The notes beneath the pieces are model-generated. The model ran no database searches. It saw only the letters and a list, made by a program, of their open reading frames with translations, and was not told where the DNA came from. A stretch of DNA of 64,000 nt from Clostridia bacterium (GTDB taxonomy: Bacteria; Bacillota; Clostridia; UMGS1883; UMGS1540), in NCBI GenBank assembly GCA_045533905.1, contig JAZSIR010000022.1:36498-100497 (forward strand). Direction: 5' to 3'. Position numbers and translations under genes: made by a program. This document shows, piece by piece, positions 48,752 to 55,444 of the stretch (positions are counted from its first letter, which is position 1; every line of letters begins with the position of its first letter).

Positions 48752-50155
48752 TTGAAATTCTGTATAAAGAAAGAGTGTAATTTATTGGAAGTCTACTGTG
48801 GTCTTAAAAGCGGCGCCGTTTTGCAAAGAGATGGCGAAAATGTGTGCCAATGTTATTTCAGCGCACACGCGGAGGGAACGATTTCTTCTTCCCTCGGTCA
48901 TATTGAAAAATGCGGCGAAGATTCCTATGTTCTTTCCGGTATTCCCGTGGGCGGCCCTTATGAAATTAAAGTGTGGGATGACGCTTCGGCCTTGCTTCTT
49001 ACGGACATCTATGTTGGTGACCTGTGGCTTTTAGCCGGTCAGTCTAATATGGAGGGCTCCGGGAAATGGCGCGAAGCGATGCAGACGTATGATGCCTCGC
49101 CAAAAGAGACCGTGCGCGCCTACTATATGAATGAATCCTGGGGCGCGGCGAAAACGCAGCTGCACCAGCTTTGGGAATCTATATATCCTTTTATTCATGA
49201 GCCCTACCGCAAAACGCGGAAAGAATCTCCTTGGGGCGATGAATTCCCCGCGGTGCAAAATGACGGTGTTGGCCCCGGTCTTTTCTTCGCGCTGGAGATG
49301 GAACGCCTTTCCGGCGGTGTGCCGCAGGGCGTTATTCCCTGCGCCGTTGGCGGCTCCTCCCTTTCGGACTGGAACCCGGACAATGCAGATAACCTCTATA
49401 CGGCTGCCATTTGCCGTTTCCGTGCGTGCGGCGGACATATCCGCGGTATTTTCTGGCATCAGGGCGAATCACAGGCGCCTTTTGTAATTGCCGCCCACTA
49501 TGTCGACGATATGAAAAAGCTCGTGGCCTCGTTCAGAAAGGATTGCAAAAATCCCCGCCTTCCGTTTGTGCAGGTGCAGATTAATAAGTATGTTTCCCAA
49601 AATCCAGACCGTGAAATTGCCTGGACGTTTTTCCGCGAAAAGCAGCGAACACTCTCCTCGCATATCGAGAATCTTGCTACGGTGTGGTCGGTGGATGCAG
49701 AGCTTGACGATTCTCTTCATCTTGCAAGCGAATCACAGATAGAAATCGGCGGGCGTGCCGCCGAGGCAATGTCGCATCTTTTAGGTGGCGAAGGCTTCCC
49801 TTCTCCCGATTTTGACGGTTTTGAAATTATCCCCGATGATTTTGTTCCCCATGCTGTAAACATCCGCATCCACTTTAAAAATATAGTGGGCGGCCTTACG
49901 GCAAAGGGTGTTCCCTCCGGCCTTGCCGTTTTAGAAAAGGAAGACGGGTTTCCCGTGCCGTGCATCCAGAGAATTTGTCTCGAGGGCGATTCGATACGCC
50001 TTAAAATAAATTTCCCCGAGAAAAATTTTGAGGACCTTTATATCGCATATGCACACGGCAATTCTTTTTACTGCAACATTACGGACGGCCGTGGCCGAAG
50101 TATTCCCGGATTTGGGCCTCTGAAAGTTGCAGATTATTTGAAAAAAGGAGAATAA
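48752..50155 (+). CDS. Sialate O-acetylesterase (SASA)-type carbohydrate esterase; start uncertain (TTG 48752 or 48785)
   Basis: VGDLWLLAGQSNM, WHQGES, D.LH catalytic motifs. Confidence 0.82.
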   Translation: MKFCIKKECNLLEVYCGLKSGAVLQRDGENVCQCYFSAHAEGTISSSLGHIEKCGEDSYVLSGIPVGGPYEIKVWDDASALLLTDIYVGDLWLLAGQSNMEGSGKWREAMQTYDASPKETVRAYYMNESWGAAKTQLHQLWESIYPFIHEPYRKTRKESPWGDEFPAVQNDGVGPGLFFALEMERLSGGVPQGVIPCAVGGSSLSDWNPDNADNLYTAAICRFRACGGHIRGIFWHQGESQAPFVIAAHYVDDMKKLVASFRKDCKNPRLPFVQVQINKYVSQNPDREIAWTFFREKQRTLSSHIENLATVWSVDAELDDSLHLASESQIEIGGRAAEAMSHLLGGEGFPSPDFDGFEIIPDDFVPHAVNIRIHFKNIVGGLTAKGVPSGLAVLEKEDGFPVPCIQRICLEGDSIRLKINFPEKNFEDLYIAYAHGNSFYCNITDGRGRSIPGFGPLKVADYLKKGE

Positions 50156-50160
50156 TTTGC

Positions 50161-51780
50161 ATGGAAAAGCGGCTTCAAAAAGGTACGTGTATCGAAAGTA
50201 ACACGTATTATAAGGCAGACGGCTTACGTATTGACATCTATCCGGAAGACTGCGAAATCACTACCGAGCCGGTCTATTTCCCCTATTTTTCCCACTCCAT
50301 ACAGCAAGCCAGGCCGGTTGGTTTTCTCCTCAAAAATCTTGAGAATGTTACGCTGGATTTCGGGGGCGCGACCATTGTTTTTCACGGGGAAATCGTACCA
50401 TTCATCCTCGATACCTGTAAAAATGTGAAGCTTATCAACTTCAAGGTGGACTATCACAGACCCTTCTATACACAGGCGCGCGTTTTGGAATGTGACAAGA
50501 CCCATATGCGCGTCCGTATGGACAAGGACTTTCCGTGCCGCGTAGAAAACGGCTACCTCTACGCCGTGGGCGATGGCTGGGAGAGAAACCTGAACAAAGA
50601 GTCCTGTCTGCTGTGGCTGTATGACAGAAGCGGGATAAAGAACTACTCCATTATTCTGGCAGCCTTTGGCCCTGAAATTTTCCCCAGCGAAAATCCCCCG
50701 CTGCCCATCCGCCATCTCCTCGTAGAGGAAGAAGGGGACACCTTCGTCTTCCGTGGCGATTTCCCCGAAGCGTGGGATGCAAATGACGAAAACAACAGTC
50801 TTGTGTTCTCGCACGAACCGCGCGACAAGTGCACGATAACTATCGTAAACTGCGAGAATATTTATGTGGAAAACTTCACGCTCATCTACGGCGCTGCCTA
50901 TGCCGTGATGGGGCTGCACTCCAAAAATTTATATTTCGACAATTACAATATGTATATGGATTTTGAAGGGAATGGCCGCCTCGTAACGAACAATGCCGAC
51001 GGTATTCATCTTTTCAACTGCAGCGGCGATTTCGTTTTCAAAAATTCGCATATGGAAGGTCTTCTGGATGATACGGTGAATGTGCATAACAACTACCTAC
51101 GGGTGGTGGAAGCAGAAGAAAACCGTCTTGTGTGCGCATTTGTCGGCGCTTCTCTCTCGCTGCAGTGTCCCATTTTTGCAAAGGGAGACCGCATCGCACT
51201 CTACCGGGGCAGAACGCAGGAGAGAAAAGCAGAAGCCGAAATCACGGATGTTTTCATCGACTTGGAAAAGAGGCAATTTGTATATTCGCTTGACCGCACT
51301 CTTGCAGGCATCGATTCCGGCGACGTAATGGAAAACCTTTCCGGTCACCCCGAAATTCTTTTGGAAAACTGCGAGTTCGGCCGCTTCCGCGGCACGATGC
51401 GCCTGCAGAGCCGCGCCAAAACGGTGGTGCGAGGCTGCAAGTTCCATAATCTTCAGGAATCTATTATCTTCACGGGCGATACGACGTACTGGTTCGAATC
51501 CGGCCCCGTAAACGACTTCCGCATCGAAAACTGCTCCTTCCCGCACACGACCTTCTGTCCCCGCATCCTTTTCTTTGGTGAGGTGGAATATACGGAGAAG
51601 GAAAACTATTATCACAAGAATATCACCGTTGAAAACTGCACCTTCGGCAAGGGGGAGGTCGCCATTTTGAACCACGTGGACGGATTCGTGTTCCGCAACA
51701 ATACGGCGGACGGCGAAATGAAAATCCGCGTGAAGGAATCGGTAAATGTCGTCTGCGATGAGGATGTAACGCTTTTATAA
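50161..51780 (+). CDS. Right-handed beta-helix protein, GH110 (alpha-galactosidase)-like
   Basis: N.TLDF.G..I.FHG, ADGIH, DD..NVH motifs; repeated I.(I/V)ENC.F turns. Confidence 0.7.
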   Translation: MEKRLQKGTCIESNTYYKADGLRIDIYPEDCEITTEPVYFPYFSHSIQQARPVGFLLKNLENVTLDFGGATIVFHGEIVPFILDTCKNVKLINFKVDYHRPFYTQARVLECDKTHMRVRMDKDFPCRVENGYLYAVGDGWERNLNKESCLLWLYDRSGIKNYSIILAAFGPEIFPSENPPLPIRHLLVEEEGDTFVFRGDFPEAWDANDENNSLVFSHEPRDKCTITIVNCENIYVENFTLIYGAAYAVMGLHSKNLYFDNYNMYMDFEGNGRLVTNNADGIHLFNCSGDFVFKNSHMEGLLDDTVNVHNNYLRVVEAEENRLVCAFVGASLSLQCPIFAKGDRIALYRGRTQERKAEAEITDVFIDLEKRQFVYSLDRTLAGIDSGDVMENLSGHPEILLENCEFGRFRGTMRLQSRAKTVVRGCKFHNLQESIIFTGDTTYWFESGPVNDFRIENCSFPHTTFCPRILFFGEVEYTEKENYYHKNITVENCTFGKGEVAILNHVDGFVFRNNTADGEMKIRVKESVNVVCDEDVTLL

Positions 51781-51795
51781 AAACAAAATACATAG

Positions 51796-51828
51796 AAAAG
51801 CCGCAAAGGTTGCCCTTTGCGGCTTTTT
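51796..51828. terminator. Bidirectional intrinsic terminator
   Basis: AAAAGCCGCAAAGG-TTGC-CCTTTGCGGCTTTTT. Confidence 0.8.
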
Positions 51829-51917
51829 GTATCTCTTTTCTGCTATAGGCTCGTTTTGCTCTCCTGCGATAGGATGTCCCGAAAGGGCATATCGAATCCG
51901 CCGGGATATATAAAGAT

Positions 51918-51971
51918 TTATATCGCTGTCGAAAGCGTCAGTAGCGCTATGCTTTCGACATGGCTTGTGTG
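51918..51971 (-). other. Second, diverged copy of the rlmD 3' end (HTSHVESIALLTLSTAI*); putative att site
   Basis: Translation aligns with the rlmD C-terminus QTHHVECCVLLCR*; contains a perfect 10-bp inverted repeat. Confidence 0.7.
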
Positions 51972-51983
51972 GTGTCTGCGACA

Positions 51984-52967
51984 CTATTGATGAGATTTTT
52001 TGTATGCTTTTTCAAATAATGAAACAATAATTATATATATTCTCTTCATTATTATGGACATTAAGATAGTACCGATAATTACGACAATTATATATATAGG
52101 TATTTGTTCTATGTATTTTAATTTTATCAGTCTTAAGAACAGTCCGTGTGTGACATATATTTCTAATGAATAATCGCCGCAAAACGCATTAAACCTATTA
52201 TGTATTAAAGATGTGTTAGCTAAAATATACGATAATGAAATCATAGAACAAACAAAAAGTAATGCGTATAATACATTAAATATTACCGGAATCCCACTCT
52301 TGGCAGAAAGTACAAAGCAAGCAGCAAACAATATACCACTTAAAATAAATAGTACCCAAGCATGTTTTTTTAATTGTACATCAATATAGTCCTTTTTGCA
52401 GTAGTATATCATACCTAAAACCATACAAGGAACAGTTTGATACCAATTTATCCCCAGACCCATTAAATGACAAAGAATGCAGTAAGCACAAACACAAATA
52501 CCAAATGAAAATATTTGTATTTTCTGAGACTTAAATTTTTTGAATATAACTAAATAGAGCAAGTATACGACAAATGTAGTTTGTAAATACCAACCATTTG
52601 TAACTATTGTTCCTCCAAATAAAAACGATTGTATAAAAAGCTTAGGGGAGAAACTTCTTTCTAACAATAATGTCCATAAGCTATATAAAACTATAAGTAA
52701 AACATAAAAAGAATATAGCGGTAAAAACCTTTTAATAAAAAATCCATCTATATAGTTTTTCCTTTGGCTGGAAAGCATCAAGCCATACCCAGAAAAAAAG
52801 AAAAACATAGCAACGGAAATAAATCCCAGCAACTGAAGGAATACTCCAATATACATTCCTCTGAACAATCCGCTATACTGATACAAATGATGAATTACCA
52901 CTAATATGGAAAAAATTCCTCGCAAACAGTTCGTGTACTCTTTTGATATGTATTTTGTTTCTTGCAT
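51984..52967 (-). CDS. Membrane acyltransferase-3 family O-acyltransferase; AT-rich, probably horizontally acquired
   Basis: LRG....VVIHH, V..FFF.SGYG, WY, G.YS.EIY..H motifs; about 10 TM segments; far lower GC than the flanks. Confidence 0.88.
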   Translation of the reverse strand: MQETKYISKEYTNCLRGIFSILVVIHHLYQYSGLFRGMYIGVFLQLLGFISVAMFFFFSGYGLMLSSQRKNYIDGFFIKRFLPLYSFYVLLIVLYSLWTLLLERSFSPKLFIQSFLFGGTIVTNGWYLQTTFVVYLLYLVIFKKFKSQKIQIFSFGICVCAYCILCHLMGLGINWYQTVPCMVLGMIYYCKKDYIDVQLKKHAWVLFILSGILFAACFVLSAKSGIPVIFNVLYALLFVCSMISLSYILANTSLIHNRFNAFCGDYSLEIYVTHGLFLRLIKLKYIEQIPIYIIVVIIGTILMSIIMKRIYIIIVSLFEKAYKKSHQ

Positions 52968-52982
52968 ATAATATTTTCCTTT

Positions 52983-54320
52983 CTATCGACATAGTAGCAC
53001 ACAGCACTCCACATGATGCGTCTGCGGAAAAAGCGCAAAGGGGAAAACCTCGCTAAACGTGTAGCCGTTTTCGCAAAGGAAGGCGGCGTCGCGCGCGAGG
53101 GTGGCGGGGTTACAGGAGATGTAGAGGATTTTTTCGGGGTGCATAGAAAGAAGCGTTTGTAAAAGCGCCGCATCGCATCCCTTTCTTGGGGGATCCACGA
53201 CGGCAATGTCGGCGTGCTCGCCGTCCTCTATCAGTTTCCGGGTAACCTCAAGCGCATCGCCTGCATAGAAAAAGGCGTTTTCGAAGCCGTTTCTCTTCGC
53301 ATTTTCCACAGCGTCGCGCACCGCCTCGGGCACGATTTCCACGCCGATTACGCGCTTTGCACGGCGTGCCAAAAAGAGCGAGATGGAGCCGATGCCGCAG
53401 TAGAGGTCAAACACCGTTTTGTCGGAAATATCGCCGAGAAGCGCAAGTCCTTTTGCATACAGCTTTTCTGCCATAGGGGCGTTGACCTGAAAGAACGAAT
53501 GGTGCGAGACGGAATAGGTAATGCCGGAAAGCGTGATGTTCACCTTTCCCGTGCCGAAAAGAATCCGCGTTTCTTTGCCTAAAATCACATTGGTCCGCGC
53601 GGGATTTATATTCTGCAAAAGCGTGGTAACGCCAAGCGCGCGCAGCTTTTCGGAAAGAGCCTCCTGCGCAGGAATTGTGCGCGAGCGCGTGATGAGGGAG
53701 ACCATACATTCCTCCCCGTCTCCTTCGCGGACAAAGATGTGGCGCACCGTGCCGCGGTGCTTCTCCTCATCATACGGCGAGACGGCATTTTCCTCCATCC
53801 ACGCGAGAACGCCGCGGATAATCCGCGCCGTTTTTTCGGACTGCAAAAGGCAATCTGTGCAGGGCGCAATGCGGTGCGACCGCGGCGCAAAAAAGCCGGC
53901 CGCGATGCCCGCTTCCGTCATCGCGACAGGCATCTGAATTTTATTTCTGTACCGAAGGGATCTCCCGTCTTCTTCCACGTCGTGCACACGAAGCGAAAGC
54001 CCGCCTACGTGGCGGAACGTGTTTTCGCATATCGCACGCCACGTGCGCGACTGGAGCGCGGCATCCATATGCATAAGACTGCACCCGCCGCACTTTTCGT
54101 ACACGGGGCACGGCGGCGCGGTGCGGTTTGGCGAGGGGGTTATAACCTCTAACAGCTTACCGAAGCCGTGCGACTTTTGCAGCTTCACAATTTTTACAAG
54201 ACATTCCTCGCCCTCTATGGCGCCGGGGATGAAAAGCGGAAAGCCCTCGGGCTTTGCCACGCCTTCCCCGCCTGCGCCCTGCGAGAGAATCCGAACGGTT
54301 AAAACATCATTTTTCTGCAT
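52983..54320 (-). CDS. rlmD: 23S rRNA (uracil-C5)-methyltransferase RlmD/RumA
   Basis: TRAM domain, C....CGGC, YRNK, SFFQVN, DLYCG.G, VDPPRKG, YISCNPATLARD, FPQT.HVE. Confidence 0.95.
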   Translation of the reverse strand: MQKNDVLTVRILSQGAGGEGVAKPEGFPLFIPGAIEGEECLVKIVKLQKSHGFGKLLEVITPSPNRTAPPCPVYEKCGGCSLMHMDAALQSRTWRAICENTFRHVGGLSLRVHDVEEDGRSLRYRNKIQMPVAMTEAGIAAGFFAPRSHRIAPCTDCLLQSEKTARIIRGVLAWMEENAVSPYDEEKHRGTVRHIFVREGDGEECMVSLITRSRTIPAQEALSEKLRALGVTTLLQNINPARTNVILGKETRILFGTGKVNITLSGITYSVSHHSFFQVNAPMAEKLYAKGLALLGDISDKTVFDLYCGIGSISLFLARRAKRVIGVEIVPEAVRDAVENAKRNGFENAFFYAGDALEVTRKLIEDGEHADIAVVDPPRKGCDAALLQTLLSMHPEKILYISCNPATLARDAAFLCENGYTFSEVFPFALFPQTHHVECCVLLCR

Positions 54321-54321
54321 A

Positions 54322-55314
54322 TTATTCTATAATCGGTTTCACGCCGCTCGGCAAAAGCATTACCCAGGTCTGCCCCGGATTTAAGAGCACTTCTTCGCCA
54401 TCGGCCGTTTTCCATACAGTTTTGCCGCCGCGGGAGGGCTTTTCCCACGTAATCGGTACGGCGCGGCCCATCGTGATATAGTAGCCTTCGCCGCTGCCTA
54501 CGGTTTTTACATCAATGCGGTCGGACCCGTCGCCCAAAAGCGCGGTCTGCATCTGCATAATGATGATATTTTTCGCGGCAATCGAGGGCGGCTCCTGCAC
54601 GATGTGCGGGGCGCCGTTCATAAACTTTTTATATGTGCCTGCCTCCTCGTTATAGGAGAAGGAAGAGGAATAAAAGCCTGCATAGGGAATTTTTACATTG
54701 ACCGCACTCGTACCTTCCGCAAGGGGTGCATCCTCGGGCGCGAAGGCGAGGGGCGCCGTGGTTCTGTCGGTGCGGTAGCCCTTCTTTTCGGCGAGCCCGT
54801 TTATGTTTTCCATCGAGGTGAACGCCGTATGCCAGCCGCTTCCCTCACGCCAGAAAATGCCGCCATCCGTACCCAGAACGCCGTTTATGTTCTGGATGCC
54901 GAGGGCGGGGATATCCGCCTGCGCGCGGGGGCTGTAGCCGTAATGTGTGTAAACGGCATCGTGCTCGAGCACATAATCTAAAAAGTAATGGCGGGAAGAG
55001 CGCACGGGGCCGATTTTGGCCGTATCCTTTTCATTGAAAAAGGCCATAAGGCGTGTGGCGCCGCCTTCCACGGGTACCTCGTAAATGAGATAGGCGTCGG
55101 TAAGGCCGGCGTGCGGCCAAGCGCCGGAATTGTCATTATCCACCATAACGGCCACAGGGCGTTTTGTGGCAGAGGCATATGCCGAATAAAATTCGCTCAC
55201 GGCTTTGGGCGTTTCGGCCGGCTCTTTTCCGGTAGCGCCCGTGGGGGCCTCCGTCTTTCCGCAGCCCGAGAGCACAAGGATGCCTGCAAGGAAAATCGTA
55301 AGAAGCTTCTTCAT
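54322..55314 (-). CDS. DUF3048 family lipoprotein (YerB-like)
   Basis: Lipobox LSGC; RPVAVMVDN, YE..VEGG.TR, IGPVRS.R, PGQTW. Confidence 0.85.
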   Translation of the reverse strand: MKKLLTIFLAGILVLSGCGKTEAPTGATGKEPAETPKAVSEFYSAYASATKRPVAVMVDNDNSGAWPHAGLTDAYLIYEVPVEGGATRLMAFFNEKDTAKIGPVRSSRHYFLDYVLEHDAVYTHYGYSPRAQADIPALGIQNINGVLGTDGGIFWREGSGWHTAFTSMENINGLAEKKGYRTDRTTAPLAFAPEDAPLAEGTSAVNVKIPYAGFYSSSFSYNEEAGTYKKFMNGAPHIVQEPPSIAAKNIIIMQMQTALLGDGSDRIDVKTVGSGEGYYITMGRAVPITWEKPSRGGKTVWKTADGEEVLLNPGQTWVMLLPSGVKPIIE

Positions 55315-55370
55315 AAGTCGTTCCTTTCCGCCGCAAAAGGTCTTTGCGGCCTCCTTTTGTTCTTATATTC

Positions 55371-55444
55371 AGTATACCAGTGACGGGGGCGTCTGTCAAG
55401 AAAAAACCGCATCCCTTGACATATAGTGCGAAGTATGCTACAAT
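55371..55444. promoter_or_regulatory. Divergent sigma-A promoter pair
   Basis: Minus strand TTGACA(55399)-17-TATACT; plus strand TTGACA(55416)-17-TACAAT with TG. Confidence 0.7.

Follow-up and report, generated by a model that had tools for sequence, protein, structure and literature searches.

How does a single AT-rich acyltransferase gene come to lie between the 3' end of rlmD and what resembles a second rlmD 3' end, and has it been moved there as a unit? This question is raised by a locus within a stretch of 64,000 nt from a Clostridia bacterium, which was analysed as a whole and is referred to as the window. The features on which the original prediction was built, namely the rlmD end, the AGGA spacer, the acyltransferase gene, the second tail and the inverted repeat, are all present, and Table 1 lists their coordinates. 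The rlmD product matches TIGR00479 with 405.8 bits (cut-off 183.55) and ends with FPQTHHVECCVLLCR; the second rlmD-like tail, at 51971-51918, reads HTSHVESIALLTLSTAI. The acyltransferase gene stops at the TAG contained in the right arm, and the GACA of this arm at -20 to -17 mirrors the TGTC of the left arm. A GC profile, which had been suggested as a check, showed an AT-rich insert with a G+C content of 0.30; the values for rlmD and the whole genome are 0.56 and 0.49, respectively. The genome (1.57 Mb on 23 contigs, 95.5% complete) carries a single rlmD, and chance is excluded as the source of the two tails since they are the only HVE-type tails in its 1.57 Mb. The right arm scores 29.2 bits and the next-best position of the genome 18.8 bits, with the window itself in the training set. 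Convergent to the cassette, the window contains sialate O-acetylesterase-family (PF03629) and beta-helix-type genes (48752-51780), which are absent from the corresponding place in the closest relative, G004.

Table 1. Features of the rlmD locus, in window coordinates.
Feature	Position	Strand	Basis or remark
rlmD (RlmD/RlmCD 23S rRNA m5U methyltransferase), 445 aa	52983..54320	-	TIGR00479
Left-arm-derived rlmD residues, CCVLLCR*			Last residues of the protein
Left crossover GA at its predicted position (attL core)	53008..53009	-	First two bases of the H-V-E Glu codon
Left (P') arm encoding the replacement tail	52983..53007	-	TGTC motif at +17..+20 from GA
15-bp spacer containing AGGA (52980-52977), similar to a ribosome-binding site	52968..52982	-	Sequence
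Acyltransferase-3 (PF01757) cargo gene, 327 aa, GC 0.29	51984..52967	-	
Right (P) arm, family-conserved	51957..51989	-	Tail frame reads *-C-R-R-H-H-T-S-H-V
Right crossover GA at its predicted position (attR core)	51955..51956	-	
Displaced former rlmD tail (SIALLTLSTAI*)	51918..51954	-	Likeness to the G006 tail
10-bp inverted repeat	51927..51960	-	Copies 51960-51951 / 51936-51927
Short remnant of the CGATATAAATC hairpin-repeat tract	51873..51925	-	End approximate
Terminator-like hairpin, both strands, closing the predicted operon	51796..51827	-	
Upstream DUF3048 gene (55314-54322) and sigma-70-like promoter (55399-55371, 11/12)	54322..55399	-	Predicted

The ends of the unit were placed at the dinucleotide GA. 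It is invariant in 15 out of 15 junctions of related loci and falls, by alignment, in the codon of the general-base (catalytic) Glu of rlmD; the aligned Glu443 is termed the general base in PMC6235398. Given this invariance within the H-V-E Glu codon, we took the module as the sequence between the two GA dinucleotides, 53007-51957, a total of 1,051 bp with one ORF and no recombinase remnant, as expected from the predicted insert of about 1.05 kb without integrase. Homology to metagenome contigs begins at 53009. Close copies vary, at either end, in the base preceding GA. The cut can thus be confined only to the H-V-E codons, within which GA is the most probable crossover dinucleotide. The choice of the rumA/rlmD 3' end as an integration target, stated in the original prediction, is borne out by PMC4120198, where the same GA is the target. 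What is conserved of the att site at the right end is the arm (51989-51957); the inverted repeat is no part of it. TGTC is placed symmetrically in both arms, 17-20 bases from GA; the overall symmetry of the arms is modest, with 8.7 of 22 matches at offset 0 versus 8.0 at offset -3. The distal tail shares 20 of 30 bases with the rlmD-fused tail of G006, a member of the same genus, and only 8-13 of 30 with the tails of the seven other genus members; judged by this likeness, it is the displaced tail of the host rlmD. The proposal that the insert supplies a replacement C-terminus for rlmD is supported in the form of a discrete cassette at GA, and the left arm presumably restores a working RlmD C-terminus.

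The 10-bp inverted repeat had been regarded as an att feature, which did not hold up. It lies mostly past the right GA, outside the cassette, and constitutes the first hairpin of a CGATAT hairpin-repeat tract; we rejected it as an att site, as it belongs with the CGATATAAATC tract, whose tails fold variously. In a set made up of tract-bearing tails only, each of the 17 distinct tails preceding the tract forms a hairpin, with z from -1.6 to -6.7, and the hairpin sequences differ. No Rfam family was matched. In each of the 17 cases the 3' arm of the hairpin mirrors whichever rlmD tail precedes the CGATAT tract (window 51960-51873, L002, L004, L008, L009, L020, L024, L025, L057, L078, L079, L137, L138, L140, L173, L175 and L179), which suggests local templating or strong selection. 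The tract often leads to a gene for a PF05635 four-helix-bundle protein.

Is the cassette a single case? We found that the right arm is common to 29 modules in 25 genomes, with varied cargo and partly in tandem; these are the complete modules obtained from 27 out of 30 loci picked for the arm, and they are not independent, several of them having common cargo. Their size ranges from 500 to 5,560 bp, with 22 of 29 modules at ≤1.5 kb, and their G+C content from 0.27 to 0.36. In 19 of 29 modules the last stop codon lies ≤9 bases from the arm. Among the cargo are three acyltransferase-3 modules, DNA methylases, four-helix-bundle proteins, HNH, GDSL, hexapeptide transferase and metallo-hydrolase. 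One cassette (L198:5049-6197) has an in-frame fusion, of 383 aa, between a four-helix-bundle gene and the cargo gene that follows. Recombinase or relaxase domains were absent from the 33 of 55 cargo ORFs that were scanned, near-duplicates and overlapping artefact frames having been left out, and 32 recombinase queries against all 29 modules revealed a clear remnant in one (G038) and none in the other 28. Cassette arrays in relatives had been anticipated, and tandem arrays indeed occur in G037, G490 and G425; many of their internal junctions are degenerate. Alternative cargo between the same arms was found as well: in metagenome run X9 the arms surround 528 other bases, and in run X7 the right arm of the acyltransferase module leads into another cassette.

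The strict right-arm pattern was detected at 9 loci of a species-representative collection, all of them in Clostridia, and in 3 of 400 sampled genomes of the class. The junction model was matched over its full length by 9 of the 87 genomes searched in the order and by 14 of the 150 searched among the relatives of G425; the training set included six of these genomes. Searches of viral contigs with arm patterns gave 0, 17 and 0 matches, the 17 being chance matches without a tail. A metagenome scan for the arm yielded 6 chance matches without a tail, and plasmid and phage BLAST searches returned chance matches or the rum gene only. A literature search, which excluded supplements and most subscription papers, retrieved no description of such recurrent rlmD cassettes below 2 kb or of a helper for them.

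The same modules occur next to very different rlmD genes. The acyltransferase module is present at full length directly 3' of rlmD in G490 (81% DNA identity) and, with a premature stop, inside an array in G425 (80%); the RlmD proteins of these genomes are 41% and 40% identical to that of the window, respectively. Further copies come from gut metagenomes. Run X1 contains a 96%-identical copy starting at 53009. Runs X8 and X9, which belong to one study, yielded a copy with 93% identity over 53009-51958; on one side it is fused at 53009 to another rlmD, on the other at 51958 to another tail. The host flanks of the metagenome copies are unrelated past about 8 common bases. A sister module of 500 bp encoding an HD-domain protein is 98.8% identical in G001 and G476, whose RlmD proteins share 40% identity. 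High module identity across hosts with divergent RlmD calls for horizontal movement of the trimmed unit. Relatives without the cassette had been named as a further check, and none of the 21 other genomes of the family carries the acyltransferase gene; rlmD tails vary widely among 40 relatives, and no empty allele from the same species was found. G476 holds two rlmD 3' junction alleles (L091 and L129) with an HD-domain gene and a GDSL lipase gene as the respective first cassette, which suggests strain-level variation.

Which enzyme could act on these arms? A complete element of 9.4 kb on a single contig of G546 (L368:9357-18770, G546:C11) consists of rlmD with the left arm of the family, a cargo gene, a recombinase gene, ArdA, further ORFs and a degenerate right arm (9.7 bits, compared to a minimum of 11.4 in the modules). 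The recombinase (G546:C11:10854-12512) is a large serine recombinase of 552 aa with Resolvase, Recombinase and zinc-ribbon domains, and its gene points toward the left junction. Several ORFs of the element belong to no known family and one matched no atlas family; no recognisable relaxase or phage genes were found in it. G472 (98%) and G473 (79%) show the G546 layout, each split over two contigs. About 85 bp separate the left junction of the G038 module from a recombinase stub that shares 59% identity with the intact G473 enzyme; a frameshifted gene is also present in this module. In all four genomes with matches of at least 57% (G546, G473, G472 and G038) the enzyme lies inside such a module. 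With a C-terminal part of this recombinase as query, 1 of 151 (G546) and 1 of 87 genomes matched (2 of 238, one of them a remnant), and the full-length candidate gave a single match of 44% in 300 genomes of the class, in a prophage with a different arm.

In a tree from a quick search, the G546 enzyme clusters with prophage recombinases (99% SH-aLRT). Among 80 viral-contig relatives, those of the same clade end in or near rlmD-type tails, and several C-termini of the clade read through the site as Y-C/S-S/T-x-Q-x-x-x-H-x-E, to which the cassette arm, Y/*-C-R-R-H-H-T-x-H-V-E, is close. With a matrix of the cassette arm, the arms of the clade score from -4 to +15.5, 40 rlmD arms from -31 to -8 and three loci of other clades from -29 to -18. 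Judged by these scores and the likeness to the C-terminal motif, the arm of the cassette would be the attP arm belonging to the G546-recombinase clade, and the 552-aa enzyme of G546 is the probable cognate recombinase. The search for serine recombinases tied to rlmD-like att sites, proposed with the original prediction, was thus answered by a same-arm element outside the window's genome.

In the window's genome itself the candidate has no close homologue (best identity 29-30%, 0 matches with the C-terminal query). Its own serine recombinases (4 PF00239 and 5 PF07508 matches) were rejected as helpers, none of them adjoining an arm or tail. Likewise, a large serine recombinase of 451 aa (G000:C7:1952-3304, L128) was dismissed, as it was found in none of the 64 genomes of family f3, in which cassettes are common. 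This gene has a host-like G+C content, lies among housekeeping genes and is kept in all eight other members of the genus and all three of the sister genus; it is apparently domesticated. Among 10 cassette-bearing genomes, PF00239 loci with an adjoining arm were not observed, and three of the 10, which are 71-88% complete, have no PF00239 match. An order-wide PF00239 search showed only other arm types among the matches listed, with 179 weaker ones beyond. Other, unrelated types of serine-recombinase elements occupy the same rlmD site with different arms (L045 in G011, L064 in G034, L267 in G230 and L260 in G043). In G425 an ICE-type recombinase gene continues directly into the cassette array that holds the acyltransferase module. 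No direct parent element of the acyltransferase module was found; the same-arm elements are G546 and the decayed G038, from which type of larger element the cassette family is likely derived.

Regarding expression, an operon is predicted that runs from the promoter (55399-55371) through DUF3048, rlmD and the cargo to the terminator (51827-51796), with one weak terminator-like match inside rlmD. This layout fits transcription of the promoterless cargo by read-through from the DUF3048-rlmD operon. At the acyltransferase start, a promoter-like match (11/12) on the plus strand at 52943-52972 is directed antisense into rlmD; it may be due to chance in AT-rich DNA. Considering its PF01757 domain and the polysaccharide-biosynthesis genes that adjoin a 42% homologue in G468, the acyltransferase likely O-acylates surface polysaccharide.

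Taken together, the locus carries a 1,051-bp cassette with defined ends and without a recombinase, its arms are common to modules that recur across families and in arrays, and a same-arm element encodes an intact recombinase. We consider it probable, at roughly two chances in three, that this is a non-autonomous cassette with matched arms, recurrent in unrelated Clostridia and moved by the recombinase of a G546-type element. A large serine recombinase from such a rarer autonomous element would insert and excise the cassette at GA, the left arm would restore the RlmD C-terminus and the cargo would be read from the DUF3048-rlmD operon. As a T-x-H-V|E-x-x-x-L-L site is restored at every junction, further insertions are possible. 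The small modules may descend from G546-like elements that lost their interior and took up tightly packed genes; the terminal genes of G546 are also tightly packed, and tight packing alone is therefore no proof of capture. The cassette ends hold 40 and 27 non-coding bases, which leaves no room for an oriT, and transfer would hence most likely occur in cis. The cassette would cross between cells in tandem with an autonomous rlmD element (G546 type, ICE or prophage) and would stay behind when the latter excises alone; the recombinase-plus-array arrangement of G425 is the tandem state that this requires.

Of the mobilisation in trans that had originally been proposed, the recombination step agrees with these data and the rest does not, there being neither room for an oriT nor a junction of an excised acyltransferase circle in assembled metagenome contigs. 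In its full form this integron-like model has a free circle of 1,053 bp, acted on purely in trans, that spreads by transduction, transformation or vesicles and integrates autonomously. Its matched arms with TGTC symmetric at +/-17 to 20 would make a plausible attP, single-gene modules do lie directly behind rlmD in several hosts, and the two junction alleles in the G476 assembly (L091, L129) are in keeping with it. However, the arm-to-arm joint in X7 leads to other cargo and the flanks of the X8 joint are not visible, the cassette has no oriT or replication sequence, and a recipient would need to possess the rare enzyme at the very moment of entry. We regard such a circle as unlikely.

Could the cassette instead be the immobile remnant of an ICE or prophage, trimmed by deletion in the lineage of the window, with the arms as scars? 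Decay of the parent type is real, as seen from the recombinase stub and frameshifted gene of G038, many internal array junctions are degenerate, the G425 copy has a premature stop, and CIMEs are described as decay products in PMC5704250. Yet copies with the same ends and a DNA identity of 80-96% recur in hosts that belong to different families, none of 21 other family members has the gene, and the HD module is 98.8% identical across hosts with 40%-identical RlmD; together these demand that the trimmed unit moved horizontally, and recently. The contigs of the X runs and the identities between hosts largely refute this reading, which we judge very improbable. The original prediction had allowed for larger elements that would expose a decayed ICE remnant; such same-arm elements exist, intact in G546 and decayed in G038, but a one-off remnant does not agree with a module that is recurrent and moved. 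Least credible, in our view, is exchange by homology or microhomology between the H-V-E tails and their flanks, in which site-specific enzymes would no longer take part. Both ends do resemble an rlmD tail and most carriers lack a candidate enzyme; the host flanks, however, are unrelated past about 8 common bases, and the conserved part of the arm (-30 to -10) is kept despite having no rlmD counterpart or coding role.

If the preferred reading of a cassette moved by a G546-type recombinase is right, bacteria would acquire surface-modifying and defence genes singly, in one small module each time. The family moves surface-modifying genes (three acyltransferase-3 modules), restriction-modification, HNH and small hydrolase genes among families of Clostridia, at a site known as an entry point for resistance elements in Firmicutes. 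As annotation tools seek integrases, recombinase-free modules of 0.5-1.5 kb go unseen. The analysis adds the matched arm pair, the cross-family transfer with exact ends and the candidate recombinase. With the arm pair defined and a candidate enzyme named, it can be tested directly whether a large serine recombinase runs a cassette array, and the G546-type enzyme would be a new rlmD-specific integrase for the engineering of gut Clostridia.

How does the cassette compare with known systems? Staphylococcal SCC and pseudo-SCC elements insert at the 3' end of rlmH by means of large serine recombinases and form composite arrays that include members without ccr. The cassette resembles them in targeting the 3' end of an rRNA methyltransferase gene and in the recombinase-free array members, but the target is rlmD, not rlmH, the units are far smaller, and with 146 bits the G546 enzyme stays well below the CcrB cut-off of 900. 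Integron cassettes consist of a promoterless ORF and one recombination site, with the stop codon within or beside this site, and form arrays; the hallmarks of integrons are the tyrosine recombinase IntI, attI and a folded attC. The present cassette likewise is a promoterless ORF tightly bounded by a site, with a site-adjacent stop, arrays and predicted read-through from an upstream promoter. In contrast to integron cassettes, its sites are of the serine-recombinase type and every junction copies the tail of the host gene. No IntI or attI was found, the only neighbours being rlmD and DUF3048 and the five PF00589 matches of the genome all lying on other contigs; nor was there an attC hairpin, the hairpin lying mostly beyond the right GA with the CGATAT tract, and Rfam gave nothing. 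Without IntI and attC and with serine-recombinase-type sites, integron membership as originally suggested does not apply. Somewhat more speculatively, the system is possibly a serine-recombinase counterpart of the integron, in which the rlmD operon would provide a universal promoter and landing site, the recombinase would come from a roving 9-kb element, and ORFs would be captured precisely between an arm-borne ribosome-binding site and stop and then excised, reordered and exchanged singly across gut Clostridia.

IMEs are defined by their own integrase together with a relaxase or oriT; the cassette has no such genes, and its ends offer 40 and 27 bases. Closer are the elements known from rumA/rlmD, a hotspot (PMC4701971, PMC5357655, PMC7168690) from which serine-integrase ICEs, IMEs, vanG/ICE-r elements and prophages are described (PMC4120198, PMC4701971, PMC5357655, PMC7168690, PMC9815147). 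Like the cassette, such elements insert at the GA within the terminal Glu codon of H-V-E, replace the C-terminus in frame and stack in tandem. They are large (ICE-r about 45 kb) and have their own integrase, which in ICEs reads through attR, whereas the cassette measures 1 kb, lacks integrase and relaxase and has a non-coding right arm; an own serine integrase is found in the same-arm G546 element. TGTC is symmetric at +/-17 to 20 in the cassette and stands at +15 in other tails of relatives. By the definition of CIMEs in PMC5704250 and PMC9815147, the cassette counts as one at the level of sequence: attL and attR are retained, and integrase, relaxase and transfer genes are absent. A copy stands in tandem with an ICE-type recombinase gene in G425, and transfer in cis, as in CIMEs, would be likely. 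The CIMEs of S. suis are about 13 kb long and lie in snf2, and these texts report no single-gene CIMEs in rumA. The cassette family differs from CIMEs in being made up of recurrent, promoterless modules of 0.5-1.5 kb with stop codons in the arm, shared across host families. We conclude that the observation is real and the unit mobile, and that the cassette represents a CIME-like element of a new sort, at a hotspot already known.
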